IMG/VR virus record: IMGVR_UViG_2579778652_000004
Origin: a virus
Lineage: Duplodnaviria; Heunggongvirae; Uroviricota; Caudoviricetes
Reading direction: 5' to 3' (one strand)
DNA: 5,648 nt
Below the pieces are notes generated by a model, which searched no databases, was not told where the DNA came from, and was given only the letters and a program-made list of their open reading frames with translations. Position 1 is the first letter of the stretch. Each line of letters begins with the position of its first letter. Made by a program: the position numbers and the translations under genes. Shown piece after piece: positions 1 to 4,541 of the stretch.

Positions 1-1
1 T

Positions 2-352
2 CGCAATGTCCGGGCAAAATCAGGTTTAAACCGTTCGATACTGGATCAGGGCTGGTATGAAATGCGCCGCCAGCTTGAGTACAAGCAGCTCTGGCGTGGC
101 GGTCAGGTGCTTGCTGTTCCGCCAGCGTACACAAGCCAGCGTTGCGCGTGCTGTGGTCATACAGCGAAAGAAAATCGCCTGTCACAAAGTAAATTCAGAT
201 GCCAGGTATGTGGATATACAGCGAACGCCGATGTAAACGGCGCTCGTAACATTTTAGCGGCGGGGCACGCCGTACTTGCCTGTGGAGGGATGGTGCAGTC
301 AGGCCGCCCGTTGAAGCAGGAACCCACCGAAATGATTCAGGCGACAGCCTGA
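2..352 (+). CDS. tnpB: IS200/IS605-family TnpB (OrfB) RNA-guided nuclease, C-terminal ~117 aa; 5' end lies outside the window
   Basis: The frame is open from the window edge: [20 protein letters not shown] precedes the Met at 62, so the 96-aa ORF in the track is the tail of a longer protein. It carries the TnpB C-terminal signature: 'SILDQGW...RRQLEYK', a CxxC...CxxC zinc ribbon (CACCGHT ... CQVCGYT) and the RuvC-III-like '[10 protein letters not shown]' motif with the Asp retained. Stop TGA at 350-352. Confidence 0.85.
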
Positions 353-410
353 ACGTAGCAGGAATCCACGCCCTTCGGGGCGTGGAGGATGTCACACTGC
401 CTCTTTAATG
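230..410 (+). ncRNA. Candidate TnpB-associated guide RNA (omega RNA / reRNA) overlapping the tnpB 3' end and IS right end; coordinates approximate
   Basis: Established knowledge for IS200/IS605 TnpB: the guide RNA scaffold is encoded by the 3' end of tnpB plus the right end, with about 16 nt of guide copied from DNA just outside the IS. The UUCG hairpin at 365-386 on the tnpB-sense strand fits a terminal scaffold stem. No RNA ends can be determined from sequence alone. Confidence 0.25.
365..386. repeat. Hairpin: 9-bp stem (365-373 / 378-386) with TTCG loop, immediately 3' of tnpB
   Basis: Read directly: tccacgccc-ttcg-gggcgtgga. In plus-sense RNA this is a C(UUCG)G tetraloop hairpin. It is part of a 30-nt motif repeated at 4118-4147. 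Confidence 0.75.
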
Positions 411-757
411 TTGGCGGCTATCCATGCCGCCGTGTGCTGTTTAACCTGGTCCAGGTCGATGTATGTGCCAACATATTGACTCAAGTCCTGTAACGTACCG
501 ATAAATGCATCAGTGCTCTGATCGACGAATTTATCAGCCAGGAAATCAGCAACCAGTTTTGGCACACCATCATGTTCCGAAGGTTGTTTTTCCTCGCCAC
601 TACCACCGCCGGACGCGCCGTACCCCATCTGTTGCATGATCTGGTCAATTTCATCGCTGATATCCAGCAACTCCATACCACTCGCGATAGCCGCTTTGGA
701 CATCAGAGCATCCAACTTATCGCTGAGATCCATTAACTCAATAGCTGATAGTGTCAT
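392..757 (-). CDS. ddrA: Small, strongly acidic protein (121 aa), DdrA-like member of a P1-type Dar anti-restriction operon
   Basis: Its ATG at 755-757 overlaps the darA-like stop (ATGA overlap at 754-757), with a G-rich SD-like stretch upstream. The protein has about 21 Asp/Glu against 7 Lys and no Arg. Position immediately downstream of the darA-like gene matches P1 gene order as I recall it. The stop TGA (392-394) lies inside the repeated hairpin motif. Confidence 0.45.
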   Translation of the reverse strand: MTLSAIELMDLSDKLDALMSKAAIASGMELLDISDEIDQIMQQMGYGASGGGSGEEKQPSEHDGVPKLVADFLADKFVDQSTDAFIGTLQDLSQYVGTYIDLDQVKQHTAAWIAANIKEAV

Positions 758-2673
758 GCCGCTACCCCCGCTTTCTGGATTGCTACCAGCAGATCAGCCA
801 GGTGGCGAGCAGCGCCATTAACCAGCTCTTCGTTTTCCTCAAAACGCCCGGCAGCCTGAAGGGCTGCAATCGCTTCCCGGACATTGCCCCGGGCGTTACG
901 GATCTCCGCCATGTCAGTGCTTTGCATATCCATCACGTTATTGAGATATTCAATGGCTTTATTAGCCTCTGCATCTGCTTCGCTAACCGTTTCATCAGGC
1001 TGTGCCGGGACCGGTTCTGGTTGAGTAATCTCACCGACTTCGGCCTGCAATGCCTTGATCATGCTCTGCACCATTTTCTCGGTGCCAGCGCCCCCAGGAA
1101 ACGCAATATTGGGGAAAGTTTTTTGAAACTGAGTTTTCAGCATTACGCGGAACTCGTCTGGTGAGCTGGTGGCCAGCTCCAGAGCTTTTTGTGCATATTT
1201 GCCAAACGGACCATTAGTAAGTGTCTTCGCCAGGAAGTCGAAAGAATCCTCGCGAGGCAATAACTTCAGGTCGTACTCACTCATTTGCTGATCAGAAAGC
1301 GGGGTATCGTAAGTAGCAATGCCGTAGCGTGCATATTCATAATACGGGTCACCTTCATCAGGGCGCGGCAGAATTGCTTTGTTACCTTCAGGTATTGCGC
1401 CAGGGGCCGCCGGACGCATTTGCAGGGCATATCGATATGCACCTACAGAGACTTCTGGTTCAGGCGAAGAGCTACCGGTATCCTCCGCTGGTTCAGGTTC
1501 GACGTTTTCCGGTTTATGTTCTTCTGGTTGGACCAGGTATTCCGATACATTACCCGCTTTATAGGCTTTAAACAGCTTGCCGATCGCATCTGCCATGTCC
1601 ACACCCTGTATGGATTTAGCCTTGATCATGTATACGCTGCCATCCGGATCGGTTAACTGGATATACCCTTCGCCATCCCCAATGAATTGCTTCATTGATG
1701 CACCATTACTGAGCGTCGCTTCCCCGTCCATATGCATACGATTTTTGATACTGGCAAGGCGATCCGTCAGCGCGCGAGAGTACCCACCAGTCATCCCCGC
1801 AGGAGCAATGGTATCGCGCCCACCAGTGCGATTGAGCTGATCAATCTCCGTCTGCAAACGCTCATTCTCTTCATAAAGAGAATCCGCTTCCGATGCAACA
1901 GCGTTAATTTTCTGCTCCAGATCTGCCTTCTGCCCTTCTACCGCTGCCACCTGATCCGCGAGGTCGCTCATGGCATCCTCTTTCTGGTCACTGTCAGCCT
2001 GTAGTTGGGTTATTTCATCAACAAGGGCTTTTTTCTTCTTCTGCGCACGCTGGAATTTTGCCGAGTTTTTCTCTGCAAGGTTGGCAAGTTTCATGGTGAC
2101 CTGCGCCAGCGTCATATCACGTCCACTCATCGGAGCAACGGTGTGAGTAACGTCTTTTTTATTCAGTAAGAACTGGAAAGCAACCAGCGTATCGCTATTG
2201 GTGATCCGGTTTTCCGCTGTCGGGCTATGAAACAGAATGCTGATAGTCTGACCATCACTGAGCGGAATAATGGCTGGCAGGACCGGCAGCCCGTTAACGT
2301 TACGTGCCCGACCAATTTCAGCGCCGCCGATCGCGCGCGCGCCGCTCTGGGCCACATCGCCCGTTTTATCACTCCCCGCAGAGATTCCGGTACCATTCAG
2401 CTTCTGGTTCAATGCCCGGACAAATGCCTGCATGGTCCGGTGTAACTGCAAACGAGTAGAACTAATCGCCTCCAGTAAATCCGTAGCACACCAGTGGATC
2501 GGCGTGTCATAGAAGAACGTAGCCTCGATTTCCTCCAGGGTGTTGGATTCCGTCATCAGATAGCGGTCCTCACCGGCCATTAATGCGCGATATTCATCAT
2601 CAGTCACTGGCGGGGGAAGCGCGTCAAGCCCAGGTTTGATCGTCACCCCTTTATTGATATTGAACTGTTCCAT
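754..2673 (-). CDS. darA: DarA-like protein (639 aa), large component of the phage P1-type 'defence against restriction' system
   Basis: Long uninterrupted ORF with ATG at 2671-2673 and an AGGAAA SD about 8 nt upstream. Size and position (after the holin/antiholin pair and an hdf-like gene) match the P1 darA operon. Residues about 135-215 are paralogous to the upstream 200-aa ORF (shared 'KNSAKFQ'), matching the definition of Hdf as a homologue of a DarA fragment. Contains a coiled-coil-like heptad region (about residues 210-275) and Pro/Glu-rich linkers. Confidence 0.6.
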   Translation of the reverse strand: MEQFNINKGVTIKPGLDALPPPVTDDEYRALMAGEDRYLMTESNTLEEIEATFFYDTPIHWCATDLLEAISSTRLQLHRTMQAFVRALNQKLNGTGISAGSDKTGDVAQSGARAIGGAEIGRARNVNGLPVLPAIIPLSDGQTISILFHSPTAENRITNSDTLVAFQFLLNKKDVTHTVAPMSGRDMTLAQVTMKLANLAEKNSAKFQRAQKKKKALVDEITQLQADSDQKEDAMSDLADQVAAVEGQKADLEQKINAVASEADSLYEENERLQTEIDQLNRTGGRDTIAPAGMTGGYSRALTDRLASIKNRMHMDGEATLSNGASMKQFIGDGEGYIQLTDPDGSVYMIKAKSIQGVDMADAIGKLFKAYKAGNVSEYLVQPEEHKPENVEPEPAEDTGSSSPEPEVSVGAYRYALQMRPAAPGAIPEGNKAILPRPDEGDPYYEYARYGIATYDTPLSDQQMSEYDLKLLPREDSFDFLAKTLTNGPFGKYAQKALELATSSPDEFRVMLKTQFQKTFPNIAFPGGAGTEKMVQSMIKALQAEVGEITQPEPVPAQPDETVSEADAEANKAIEYLNNVMDMQSTDMAEIRNARGNVREAIAALQAAGRFEENEELVNGAARHLADLLVAIQKAGVAA

Positions 2674-2674
2674 G

Positions 2675-3277
2675 TTAATTTCCTGCTTTCAGTTGCTTAA
2701 GACGGCGTTTGAGTTCGCCATTTCGGGCCTTTTCGTTATTGAGTCGGCCTGTCTCCTTATCCAGCTTCGCCCGCAAATCAGTGATCTGCTGTTGATTGAA
2801 AGACACCGAGTTCTGCGCTGATTTATAAGCGGCAACCACCTGAACATTCCGCTGTTTTGCCTCTTGCAGGCGCTGAAAGTTGGATTTTACTGCCGGTTTC
2901 TTGTCTACCGGATTGGCAACACGTTTCGCTTTGGCGATCAGTGATTTCTGGAATTTTGCGGAGTTTTTGCGGGCCGCTTGCCCCATGACGGTACCAAGCG
3001 TCTTGATATCCGGCGACTGAGCGTTAGGAATAGCTTTTCCATTCAGCCTCACAGACGATATATCGCCAGTATCGTTTACCTGTATGGCAAGAATTTGTCC
3101 GTCGTTAAGAACCAGCTTTGCGGTTTTAACTTTAACGCCATCTTTCGTTGTTGCGCGGTTGCTGGAGTCAACCTCAATTACCGTAACACCGGTTTTATTG
3201 ATCGCCGCGATAAGGGATTTCAGCCCCTTTTCATTAACCTGGTCAAAATCGACCGTTGCATACTTATTTTTCGTCAT
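2675..3277 (-). CDS. hdf: Hdf-like protein (about 200 aa; homologue of DarA fragment), Dar system component
   Basis: Shares a roughly 70-aa segment with the DarA-like protein, including 'ARKNSAKFQK' against 'EKNSAKFQR' and 'LNDGQ' against 'LSDGQ', and has a coiled-coil-like C-terminus. The ATG at 3275-3277 (MTKNKY...) is preferred because AGGA sits 8 nt upstream; the track start at 3286 (MCQ...) has the AGGA directly abutting the ATG. Stop TAA at 2675-2677, 1 nt before the darA start. Confidence 0.55.
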   Translation of the reverse strand: MTKNKYATVDFDQVNEKGLKSLIAAINKTGVTVIEVDSSNRATTKDGVKVKTAKLVLNDGQILAIQVNDTGDISSVRLNGKAIPNAQSPDIKTLGTVMGQAARKNSAKFQKSLIAKAKRVANPVDKKPAVKSNFQRLQEAKQRNVQVVAAYKSAQNSVSFNQQQITDLRAKLDKETGRLNNEKARNGELKRRLKQLKAGN

Positions 3278-3707
3278 CTGACACATCCTGTGCGAGATTT
3301 ATTACGTAACTTCTGCGGATTTGCTGAGTAACAGGGAAAATCCGATACAACGGGTTAATGAACGAGTCGCCATGCGTAACCATGACGTTGAAATGCCACA
3401 GCCGTTCTCCTTTACCCATATATTCAGTGGGTATGTACAACCATTCACTGTTTTCGCCCTGTTCAGCCGACGTCAGACAACGTTGTTCGCCTTCAATCAC
3501 AGTCGTCGGCTTCTGAACATCGCGGATCCAATATCTGACCGTTGCGCCGCGCAAAAACGGGAATTTAGACCGGTATTTGAACGGCACCCGGATGAAACCC
3601 GGTTTAATTTCCACATCACCAAGTTCTAAATGCGTGATGTCCTTGCGTTTTAGCAAATAGCGATCGGCTAAGGCTAACGCAAGAACGCATACACCCCAGC
3701 CAATCAT
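3264..3707 (-). CDS. lydB: LydB-like protein (147 aa), putative antiholin / lysis regulator
   Basis: ATG at 3705-3707 overlaps the holin stop (ATGA), with a GGGAGG SD 7 nt upstream. Hydrophobic N-terminus (MIGWGVCVLALALA). Size and position directly after the holin match the P1 lydA-lydB arrangement as I recall it. Confidence 0.5.
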   Translation of the reverse strand: MIGWGVCVLALALADRYLLKRKDITHLELGDVEIKPGFIRVPFKYRSKFPFLRGATVRYWIRDVQKPTTVIEGEQRCLTSAEQGENSEWLYIPTEYMGKGERLWHFNVMVTHGDSFINPLYRIFPVTQQIRRSYVINLAQDVSDDEK

Positions 3708-4033
3708 TTCCCGCCTCCCTTTTTCACCAAACTTGTAAGAACATTCAGAATGCTATCGATATTCACTCGTTTCATCCCTGAAATCACCTCATGACCGTTA
3801 TTGCTGGCTATCGTTACCATTAAGTACGTAATTGATAACTCCCAGCCCTCGTGTTGCCCCAATAGGTACGCCACCGCGCCAGCTGTCACTGCAACAAAGA
3901 TCTCCGTAACCAATCCCAACAAATTGCCAGACTGGCGACCGTCTCGGACATCCATCAGGAACGTGCCTATCCCACCAATTACTGAAAGCAGGAGCGCAAT
4001 AGCAACTGGAGCTAATTCCTGTGTGTCAAGCAC
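3704..4033 (-). CDS. lydA: Holin (LydA-like, 109 aa), GTG start
   Basis: Small protein with 2-3 predicted transmembrane helices (LAPVAIALLLSVIGGIGTFLM; LVTEIFVAVTAGAVAYLL; SITYLMVTIA) and a charged C-terminus (KKGGGK), the classic holin architecture. A perfect AGGAGG SD lies 6 nt upstream of the GTG at 4031-4033. Confidence 0.6.
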   Translation of the reverse strand: MLDTQELAPVAIALLLSVIGGIGTFLMDVRDGRQSGNLLGLVTEIFVAVTAGAVAYLLGQHEGWELSITYLMVTIASNNGHEVISGMKRVNIDSILNVLTSLVKKGGGK

Positions 4034-4039
4034 AAGTTT

Positions 4040-4059
4040 CCTCCTACGTTGTCAGGAGG
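4040..4059 (-). promoter_or_regulatory. Potential SD-sequestering stem-loop in the holin 5' leader (CCUCCU-8 nt-AGGAGG on the mRNA strand)
   Basis: Read directly: plus-strand cctcct (4040-4045) and aggagg (4054-4059) are inverted repeats. On the minus-sense mRNA the lydA-like SD (AGGAGG) can pair with an upstream CCUCCU. Only a 6-bp stem, so stability is modest. Confidence 0.3.
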
Positions 4060-4108
4060 TAATGGTATGCAAAGTAACTTCTTCTCTGATTAAGTTATGT
4101 AATGCGCC

Positions 4109-4148
4109 TTGACATCCTCCACGTCCTTCAGGGCGTGGAGGATGTCAA
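4109..4148. repeat. 40-nt near-perfect palindrome (18-bp stem with one G·T, TTCA loop) overlapping the stop codon and last codons of the DUF1353-like gene; second copy of the motif seen at the IS junction
   Basis: Read directly: ttgacatcctccacgtcc-ttca-gggcgtggaggatgtcaa. Positions 4118-4147 match 365-394 at 28 of 30 nt. The DUF1353-like TGA stop (4128-4130) lies in the loop. Confidence 0.75.
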
Positions 4149-4541
4149 CTGGTATTTTCCTCTTCCAAAAAGTCTGACCGCACAATACATCAGCATCCTG
4201 CGCCAGCGGGGAACACCCAGTACACACATCGCATCAAGAAATATCTTGTCCGCTTCGTGCTTTGTCCGCAGCGCGTTGTCGTACAGCCAGTCGTGAATAA
4301 TCGCCGCTTTGGCGTAACGACCGTGTGGCGGAAATACCGACCAGAGAATGCGCGGTACGCTGGCAAGGTCTGTGACATACCCCGCAGGAACCGCAATCAC
4401 ATCCACGGGGTTATCCGTCAGCCAGAACTCAAACGGCTCAACCAGTCGCCAGCGGTAATCATCGAGCATTTCCAGCACGGCAGGAGTGGTGAATTTACTC
4501 ATCGCCCCATCCCACAACATAACGGCGAACGGCGTCGGCAC
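4128..4541 (-). CDS. Conserved phage protein of unknown function, DUF1353-like (about 124-137 aa depending on start)
   Basis: ORF with 'TDLASVPRILW...HDWLYD' motifs, which I recognise as DUF1353-type. Start is ambiguous: GTG at 4541 (AGGA 7 nt upstream, 47-nt overlap with the upstream gene), or ATG at 4520 or 4502. Confidence 0.5.
   Translation of the reverse strand: MPTPFAVMLWDGAMSKFTTPAVLEMLDDYRWRLVEPFEFWLTDNPVDVIAVPAGYVTDLASVPRILWSVFPPHGRYAKAAIIHDWLYDNALRTKHEADKIFLDAMCVLGVPRWRRMLMYCAVRLFGRGKYQLTSSTP

Follow-up and report, generated by a model that had tools for sequence, protein, structure and literature searches.

In insertion sequences (IS) of the IS608 type, the transposase TnpA binds a subterminal top-strand hairpin and cleaves behind a tetranucleotide located a few bases from its 3' side, this tetranucleotide being recognized through the four bases that precede the hairpin on its 5' side. 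Among the elements related to such ends, REPINs, symmetric doublets of repetitive extragenic palindromic (REP) sequences, are mobilized by the TnpA-like REP-associated tyrosine transposases (RAYTs) and are thought to be the spreading unit. The palindrome-associated transposable elements (PATEs) of Haloquadratum are gene-less, terminal-only IS605 remnants of about 52 bp with IS605-type end hairpins; they are products of deletion between the hairpins of the left and the right end and lie behind a target motif without target duplication (PMC3119063). IS609, which is known to occur in P1-like plasmids, is cleaved at TTAT on its left and at TCAA on its right side (PMC6906374), and the general logic of transposon-adjacent and transposon-encoded motifs (TAM/TEM) and of DNA guides has been set out (PMC10055086). 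The 5,648-nt stretch of DNA analyzed in this study (the window; IMG/VR record IMGVR_UViG_2579778652_000004, Caudoviricetes) contains two nearly identical hairpin motifs, one directly behind a tnpB gene and the other within a 40-nt palindrome at the end of a DUF1353 gene. We interpret the first as the right end of a resident IS609-type element, and the second as the remnant of another such element in mirror-symmetric form, assigning to this explanation of both copies together a probability of roughly 0.75. That the proximal copy is an IS right end and that the distal copy derives from one, taken jointly, we regard as nearly certain.

The preliminary description had reported a match of 28 out of 30 nt between positions 365–394 (TCCACGCCCTTCGGGGCGTGGAGGATGTCA, proximal copy) and 4118–4147 (TCCACGTCCTTCAGGGCGTGGAGGATGTCA, distal copy); both are present and differ at two of 30 positions. 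A search with the 30-mer, permitting up to three mismatches, retrieved only these two places in the window, and a second copy appeared in none of 200 dinucleotide-preserving shuffles. The distal copy is part of an inverted repeat (4109–4148) with 95% complementarity, for which folding as single-stranded DNA gave −19.5 kcal/mol (z = −7.2). While this inverted repeat is real, it is not the perfect palindrome with an 18-bp stem that had been described, as the stem comprises 17 Watson-Crick pairs and one pair of t4124 with g4133, which is a T:G wobble on the plus strand and an A:C mismatch on the minus strand. The proximal copy folds into a perfect 9-bp stem (365–373 with 378–386) with a TTCG loop. 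A stem of this length had been noted before, but had been taken for what was left after replacement of a left arm; it is the native form of the right end and not a truncation. The overlap of both copies with stop codons of minus-strand genes was confirmed, the TGA of the ddrA-like gene occupying 392–394, and that of the DUF1353 gene 4128–4130 within the loop 4127–4130. The palindrome encodes the last six codons (LTSSTP) and the stop of the DUF1353 gene; homologues of the predicted protein have ...FGRG.Y in common and diverge in their tails after it.

Positions 365–395 are the terminal 31 nt of a tnpB-only, 1.3-kb element of the IS609 type (IS200/IS605 family) on the plus strand. Window 1–460 was compared with 5,426 complete E. 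coli genomes, which yielded 5,704 matching records; at least 80% of this segment is present in 5,058 E. coli records. Among the matches listed, alignments of E. coli IS copies in unrelated contexts (yedK, ydcO, yfeD, and a TetR gene) stop at window 394 or 397, and IS609-type copies beside these genes and beside ytfB carry the motif to its last base. The right junctions of the copy in K-12 (locus L007) and of another copy (L011) read ...GGATGTCAA/TATCGG and ...GGATGTCAA/CATATC, respectively (slashes mark junctions); both copies end in ...GGAGGATGTCAA, and the flanks diverge after GTCAA. Independent insertions share the same right terminus, as is characteristic of right ends in the IS200/IS605 family.

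The site without the element is preserved in relatives. P1 (locus L001), P7 and other IS-free relatives read ...CGCCTTAT/GCTGCCTC and do not contain the hairpin. The ddrA–ddrB junction of P1, ...GTTACGCCTTAT/GCTGCCTCTTTAATG, likewise without a hairpin, represents the empty site TTAT/GCTGCC, and alignments of IS-free phages (P1, P7, phi456, JL22, and others) begin at window 397. RCS47 is filled at the same site (...CGCCTTAT/CCAATGTGCC...GGAGGATGTCAC/GCTGCC) without target duplication; its insertion can be written as TTAT/CCAATG...GGATGTCAC/GCTGCC, with the motif inside the inserted segment. Comparison of the empty site of P1 with the filled site of RCS47 places the end of the inserted segment, which lies 3' of TTAT, at window 395, and the IS boundary therefore is at 395/396, not near 364/365 as had been proposed. 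Since IS copies in unrelated contexts run to 394–397 and the empty site of P1 lacks the hairpin, 365–394 is transposon DNA. The insertion also altered the end of ddrA. Its original stop codon TAA, which is part of the TTAT target, was left on the far (left-end) side of the IS (window 392–397; L001 5489–5510). As the last bases of the IS provide an in-frame TGA, DdrA keeps 121 residues, its C-terminus being ...IKEAV in the window versus ...IKEAA in P1 and RCS47. In P1, ddrB starts 12 nt past the ddrA stop, and 1.3 kb of IS now separate the two genes.

Other properties agree with an affiliation to the IS200/IS605 family. Insertion occurred 3' of TTAT without target duplication, there are no terminal inverted repeats, and in sequence orientation the terminus of the left end bears no relation to that of the right end, as judged from K-12 and RCS47. 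In the K-12 type, the subterminal hairpins are alike at both ends (CCCCATCC-TTCA-GGGCGGGG at the left, CCACGTCC-TTCA-GGGCGTGG at the right end); in the subtype of RCS47 and the window, the left-end hairpin is degenerate. The TnpB protein encoded beside the right end contains a RuvC/TNB domain (PF07282, 88.4 bits versus a cut-off of 26.3). GAAT or GGAT directly precedes the hairpin in K-12, L011, a Pseudomonas plasmid (L152), a viral contig (L137) and many other right ends, the order being GGAT, hairpin and AGGATGTCAA in K-12, and GAAT, hairpin and GGATGTCAC in the window. Only the last 395 bases of the resident IS lie in the window, and its gene content was read from the same insertion in RCS47. 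That copy, of about 1,335 bp, carries only insQ and encodes no Y1 transposase TnpA; with this tnpB-only content, the element is non-autonomous. The tnpA gene of IS609 in K-12 (L007 1347–1772) contains an internal stop and is listed as a pseudogene in the annotation, and plasmid-borne copies are devoid of tnpA.

By analogy to IS608, the Y1 transposase TnpA would bind the right-end hairpin on single-stranded DNA. When transcribed, the same bases would constitute the 3' end of the scaffold of the TnpB guide RNA, with the flanking ddrA sequence from 396 on serving as guide. The sequence and the published TnpB literature indicate that the right-end motif probably is also the 3' end of this guide RNA (omega RNA). 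Rfam searches of the window returned sub-threshold matches to RAGATH-18 (279–322, 28.1 bits) and HgcC (285–408, 22.6 bits). HgcC also matches at the equivalent site behind tnpB in the Pseudomonas plasmid L152 (37.8 bits, E = 3.5e-5) and in the viral contig L137 (29.3 bits, E = 0.007), E-values which suggest a real but distant similarity. For the palindrome itself, Rfam indicated no family beyond weak HgcC, miRNA and frameshift-element noise. Compared with the empty site of P1 (L001 5496–5520), the predicted guide is exact in RCS47 and has one mismatch, at its first base, in the window. IS-free P1 presents TTAT followed by GCTGCCTCTTTAATG, a configuration reported as cut by TnpB; incoming relatives of P1 that lack the IS may be cut, at TTAT + GCTGCC, by a P1-like phage-plasmid bearing it.

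The distal copy stems from a different source. Window 4118–4148 is 100% identical to the canonical right end of K-12-type IS609 that is found in thousands of chromosomes (at ydcO, a TetR gene and other sites), and the two mismatches between the window copies are exactly the positions which separate two IS609 subtypes. The distal copy thus represents an end of the K-12 subtype and was not copied from the resident IS. This identity over 31 nt supports one of the two models of the preliminary description, namely that the hairpin is the right end of the IS and the distal copy a solo palindrome derived from such an end. To the left of the distal hairpin, TTGACATCCT takes the place of GGAT/GAAT and of the tnpB-proximal sequence. 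As this arm and the tail AGGATGTCAA are exact reverse complements of each other, a right end (RE) is read on either strand, and we refer to this arrangement as a mirror-RE palindrome. The palindrome is preceded by the target motif TTAT (4095–4098) and ten bases (4099–4108) whose likeness to the first bases of IS609-type left ends was spotted post hoc: GTAATGCGCC in the window compares to CAGATGCGCC in Erwinia, CCAATGTGCC in RCS47 and CCGGTGCGCC in K-12, with 7/10 matches to both the Erwinia and the RCS47 left end. In plasmid pHNBY4G-2 (L168), TTAT abuts the palindrome (TTAT/TTGACATCC...) and these ten bases are absent.

On this anatomy, we consider it somewhat probable that 4099–4148 is the in situ remnant of a second, independent IS609-type insertion which lost its core. 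A second IS609-type element would have inserted behind the TTAT at 4095–4098 and then lost its core, and the left side of the remnant would have been remodelled into the mirror image of the right-end tail. A mini-element of 46 nt in an O157:H7 prophage (L005 2470–2545; TTAT/CCGGTGCGCTGTAAAA-CCCCGTCC-TTCA-GGGCGTGG-AGGATGTCAA) consists of the left and right ends of IS609 fused through one hairpin and is a terminal-only PATE. In Erwinia (L129, L139), an L005-like mini-element is located about 300 nt from a solo palindrome. Plasmid pHNBY4G-2 harbors a second, different tnpB element of the IS605 family (L168 5584–6930) 16 nt left of the palindrome, between LPdar and TTAT, with the right end GGGAAT-CCTCGCCC-GACA-GGGCGGGG-AGCAGTCACA; according to the hit table, NZ_CP083587 also carries a second IS605-family tnpB element.

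Several findings weigh against the proposed explanation of the two copies. All Rfam scores are below the gathering score, HgcC reaching 22.6–37.8 bits versus 50. The terminal motif of the resident IS is TCAC and not TCAA, and judging from RCS47 the element has no tnpA. Among DUF1353 homologues and the relatives of the Klebsiella-plasmid and Stx-phage copies, none showed an empty site for the distal element, and insertion at TTAT is therefore suggested by anatomy only; the left-end-like 10-mer was recognized post hoc and is missing from the relative pHNBY4G-2, and the copies in P1-like plasmids of type B, Providencia and Stx phages have no TTAT at their left edge. Moreover, the mirror form needs an extra step, because ordinary deletion between left and right end yields elements of the L005 type. 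Among the DUF1353 homologues examined, the closest allele, P0001 (L171), diverges about 20 nt before the palindrome, and none ends in ...GKYQIT as predicted for an empty site; in Stx phages, the palindrome is kept in all relatives that span the junction. An Enterobacter plasmid (L150), the one variant without the palindrome of the Klebsiella plasmids, was considered as its empty site and rejected, since it carries a 46-bp deletion between GTC microhomologies in which 8–11 non-palindromic bases are also gone. Comparison of L150 1680–1700 with L009 2985–3050 has the appearance of a palindrome-stimulated deletion.

Mirror-RE palindromes are widespread. A scan with the pattern TTGACATCCTCC-N12-20-GGAGGATGTCAA, which excludes ordinary right ends, identified the full mirror palindrome at 120 or more loci in one-genome-per-species contigs and at 18 loci in viral contigs. 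Hosts include Streptomyces, Frankia, cyanobacteria, Chlamydiae, Desulfovibrio, the haloarchaea Halorubrum and Natrinema, and a metagenome-assembled genome (MAG) of the Methanomassiliicoccales. About 920 Klebsiella-type plasmids contain a like palindrome at one locus, the stems being perfect and differing from that of the window by compensatory changes; further sites are a Providencia plasmid, Stx2a phages (degenerate) and a second context in P1-like plasmids. Several assemblies hold two to five copies with unrelated flanks. Across the family, the six inner pairs covary (115 double-change cells versus 39 in shuffles, with none of 500 shuffles as high), and 96.5% of the inner-pair cells are paired. 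With the T-rich loop used for orientation, T:G wobbles outnumber C:A wobbles by 44 to 12, the same bias as in the top strand of right ends. The thirteen ordinary right ends present in palindrome loci share the hairpin of the respective palindrome (on average 13.6 of 16 bases versus 10.2 after permutation; none of 5,000 permutations was as high), and in viral contigs ordinary right ends with the same tail exceed the palindromes by more than 6 to 1. A tblastn search with TnpB of RCS47 gave only eight matches in seven of 138 palindrome loci, mostly not adjacent to the palindrome. The target motif could not be recognized in the flanks of 134 palindromes, where the information content is about 0 at every position. 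A search for the variant GGAGGAGGTCAA retrieved one locus, and mirror palindromes corresponding to another right-end type, that with the tail of the second IS in L168, were not found in viral contigs. A census of gene positions by crude calling of open reading frames (ORFs) placed 81 palindromes in intergenic regions, 20 with an ORF stop inside and 38 inside open frames, indicating no consistent position.

In two related viral contigs, the orthologous palindromes L147 2535–2574 and L148 8092–8131 have inverted centres (CCCCCGAC-TTCA-GGCGGGGG versus CCCCCGCC-TGAA-GTCGGGGG) with unchanged arms and flanks, which is flip-flop behaviour. In the viral contig L137 (10954–11100), the tnpB right end GGAAT-CCCCGCCC-TTTA-GGGCGGGG-AGGATGTCAA is followed, 70 nt further on, by a solo mirror palindrome with the same hairpin in the opposite loop orientation. 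P1-like plasmids and IMG/VR contigs were observed in which a group II intron resides inside the palindrome at ...GGAGGATGT/GTGCGCCC (L008 2600–3000, L170 8090–8300, L153–L155, L158, L159, and L161; Rfam group-II-D1D4-3, 96.9 bits). The intron position, three bases before the end of the palindrome, recalls introns which home to stem-loops. Literature searches with the exact palindrome strings returned unrelated primer matches only, and keyword searches led to descriptions of PATEs, the mirror form not being described in the searchable literature. The distal copy is best classified as an IS605-end remnant, which is a known kind, in a mirror-symmetric form; the breadth of this form is not described in that literature either. 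Going beyond this, we tentatively raise the possibility, at less than even odds, that the 40-nt palindrome is one member of a class of mirror-RE elements, undescribed so far and pan-prokaryotic, which are made or moved by the single-strand transposition machinery. Such a class would comprise exact units of 36–43 nt, mostly 40 nt, built around the right-end hairpin of HgcC-type TnpB/IS605 elements, with tail and cleavage motif of the right end next to it on either strand (TTGACATCCTCC...GGAGGATGTCAA); its members would occur in several copies per genome, flip their centres, attract group II introns and other IS, and mark the joints of phage modules.

With respect to the origin of the mirror arm, gradual extension of a quasipalindrome was considered and rejected. 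A search with seven left-arm bases detected no shortened left arms but only point variants, ordinary right ends and intron-interrupted copies. Complementarity ends exactly at TTGAC/GTCAA, with zero extension into the flanks at 97 of 135 loci as compared to 101 expected by chance. Edges that coincide with the transposon end on both strands, together with the lack of intermediate arm lengths, argue against gradual correction and favor a discrete event. Such an event could have been a TnpA side reaction, the repair of a break where a right end had been cleaved, or a deletion between head-to-head hairpins. The last of these would require two IS copies in head-to-head orientation, a deletion between whose hairpins, each being nearly its own reverse complement, would leave both outward-facing right-end tails around a hybrid hairpin. 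This accounts without extra assumptions for edges that equal transposon ends on both sides and for flanks of which neither has a target motif, it is compatible with the linkage of wobbles and loop orientation, and repeat-mediated loss of the core between IS605 end hairpins is documented and is seen in L005. However, two inverted copies are needed each time, which is hard to reconcile with five copies per genome, no head-to-head intermediate was present in the loci examined, and it offers no explanation for the left-end-like bases and the TTAT that precede the palindrome in the window, so that we judge this route to be quite unlikely. That the 40-nt palindrome is itself mobile, as a one-hairpin unit moved in trans by an IS200/IS605 TnpA or by another reaction, appears doubtful to us. 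Copies with the same inner stem and unrelated flanks within one assembly (five in an Oxalobacter MAG, five in Cyanobacteria MH1_Bin12, three in Desulfovibrio Dsv1, and three in a chlamydial MAG), the edges, sharply defined on either strand by the position of TnpA cleavage, and the abutting TTAT in L168 would be in line with mobility, which Dyall-Smith et al. suspected for the 52-bp terminal-only PATEs. On the other hand, the flanks show no target motif overall, the approximately 920 Klebsiella-type plasmids hold the palindrome at one and the same locus, and presence/absence polymorphism with clean edges was not found, L150 being explained by its 46-bp deletion at GTC microhomology. Besides, the hairpin is preceded by TCCT and not by GAAT/GGAT, with which, by the IS608 rule, TCAA would not be recognized; lacking a GAAT-type guide, the palindrome may no longer be a substrate of TnpA.

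Two further explanations relate the palindromes to the phage. According to the other model of the preliminary description, the palindrome is a recurring phage element of which one copy received the IS in its left arm, and 365–394 is phage DNA. Both copies do overlap 3' ends of minus-strand phage genes, and the palindrome is complete at the distal site. But the motif accompanies the IS into unrelated chromosomal sites, it is absent from the empty sites of P1, P7 and phi456, and in RCS47, which has the same insertion, it is within the inserted segment. The preliminary description had itself named a right end that includes all of 365–394 in other IS copies as the observation refuting this model, which is exactly what these copies show, and we consider the model practically untenable. 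Whatever its source, the palindrome could alternatively have been kept for a use to the phage, either as an RNA 3'-end hairpin or terminator of the tail-fibre operon, or as a recombination joint at which tail-fibre modules are swapped next to the lydA late promoter. It is located 29 nt upstream of the −22 box of LPdar, at the end of the tail-fibre/DUF4376/DUF1353 operon, and its stem is very stable. Homology of P1-like plasmids to the window ends exactly at 4148 or 4145 in one group, and at 4082–4091, before the palindrome, in another. In the second context (L169, L170, L008), the palindrome is situated exactly where P1 homology breaks off and a different tail-fibre module begins. As judged from these edges, the palindrome may act as or mark a recombination joint. 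Use as a terminator is opposed by the transcribed minus strand, on which the stem contains the A:C mismatch and the hairpin is followed by GGCGCATTAC and not by a U-tract as in Rho-independent terminators; the sole terminator-like call is on the plus strand, with CTGGTATTTT. In addition, the palindrome of the Klebsiella plasmids is upstream of fecI and not at a gene end, and the ORF-based census revealed no consistent gene position. We consider retention for phage use unlikely.

The features of the window are listed in the following table. Besides the C-terminal domain of TnpB on the plus strand (2–349), Pfam domains on the minus strand indicate DarA, a Hdf-like protein with a DarA_N domain, LydB, the holin LydA, DUF1353 and DUF4376. 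The region from ddrA to lydA shares 96.5–99% identity with P1, P7, RCS47, SJ46 and many P1-like plasmids; pSA186_4 has only window 1–4082 in common and carries a P1-type lydC–cin region. A direct repeat of 21 nt (20/21 identical) occurs at 2050–2070 in darA and 2948–2968 in the hdf-like gene; since both proteins have a DarA_N domain and the peptide NSAKFQ, it reflects paralogy and not a mobile element.

Table. Coordinates of features in the window (+, plus strand; −, minus strand).
Feature	Position	Strand	Basis
3' part of tnpB (insQ), stop codon 350–352	1–352	+	Pfam PF07282, Cas12f1-like TNB domain, 88.4 bits; 97–99.8% identical to annotated InsQ/TnpB
Probable 3' portion of omega RNA scaffold, from within the 3' end of tnpB up to the end of the IS	279–395	+	Sub-threshold Rfam matches
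GAAT, putative DNA guide for right-end cleavage, by analogy to IS608	362–365	+	GAAT/GGAT 5' of the hairpin in other right ends
Subterminal right-end hairpin, 9-bp stem, TTCG loop	365–386	+	Fold; present in all IS copies
Right-end tail GGATGTCAC, IS end at 395, terminal TCAC (TCAA in canonical IS609)	387–395	+	Empty site of P1 versus filled site of RCS47
ddrA homologue, 121 aa, stop TGA (392–394) provided by the IS end	392–757	−	ORF; P1 ddrA ends ...GCAGCATAA at the target site
Right flank, predicted omega RNA guide, 3' end of ddrA	396–415	+	P1 TTAT/GCTGCCTCTTTAATGTTGGC; window ACTGCCTCTTTAATGTTGGC, one mismatch at the first base
Homologue of P1 late promoter LPdar (−10 and −22 boxes), before lydA	4062–4080	−	P1 annotation (L001 9166–9184) and sequence comparison
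TTAT, IS609 target motif, 10 nt left of the palindrome	4095–4098	+	Sequence
GTAATGCGCC, like the first 10 nt of IS609-type left ends	4099–4108	+	Post hoc comparison
Solo mirror-RE palindrome, TTGACATCCT + hairpin CCACGTCC-TTCA-GGGCGTGG + AGGATGTCAA	4109–4148	.	Repeat search, fold, identity of 4118–4148
DUF1353 gene	4128–4541	−	Pfam PF07087, 111.9 bits

The analysis fixes the IS boundary at 395/396, identifies the stop codon of ddrA as supplied by the IS, and reclassifies the distal copy from a phage regulatory palindrome to transposon debris. Beyond the preliminary description, it indicates that the distal copy comes from another IS609 subtype, that it is located behind a TTAT, and that it belongs to a widespread family of mirror-symmetric relics. 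Mirror-RE palindromes are an inexpensive and highly specific sequence marker by which TnpB/IS605 activity, past or present, can be recognized in bacteria, archaea and phages. The sharpness of their edges, set by the cleavage site, is indicative of a side reaction in peel-and-paste transposition or its repair, and their places at tail-fibre module joints and as homing sites of group II introns suggest that they shape phage mosaicism.

Compared with known systems, the proximal copy corresponds to right ends of the IS609/IS608 type, with which it shares the subterminal hairpin without terminal inverted repeats, the insertion 3' of TTAT without duplication, GAAT 5' of the hairpin, a TCAA-type motif 10 nt 3' of it, and tnpB directly upstream. 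It differs in that the window copy lacks tnpA and has TCAC, not TCAA, as terminal motif, and in its hairpin, which is perfect with a TTCG loop, whereas that of K-12-type IS609 includes a T:G pair and has TTCA as loop. Like HgcC (RF00062) and RAGATH-18 (RF03064), the predicted RNA shares sequence with the 3' end of tnpB and stops where the transposon ends, and the terminal hairpin of the window followed by GGAGGAUGUCA resembles the HgcC consensus ...CCcCGcccUUuAgggCGggGAGGAGGUCAG; in contrast to members of these families, the window and its relatives score below the Rfam gathering score. Like REP sequences and REPINs, the palindromes are dispersed short repeats that form hairpins and are related to the ends of IS200/IS605 elements. 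However, they contain neither the GTAG tetranucleotide nor a linked RAYT gene, they consist of one hairpin and not of a doublet, and they share the same 24 outer bases across phyla, the arms being identical from Streptomyces to haloarchaea, whereas REP repeats are species-specific. There is also a correspondence to the PATEs: the distal element of 40–50 nt has no coding capacity, contains an IS605-type hairpin and possesses a right end identical to that of IS609, and the mini-element L005 in O157:H7 is exactly of this kind and of the IS609 type. Unlike a PATE, the window element has only about ten left-end-like bases, and the reverse complement of the right-end tail replaces the guide region of the left end.

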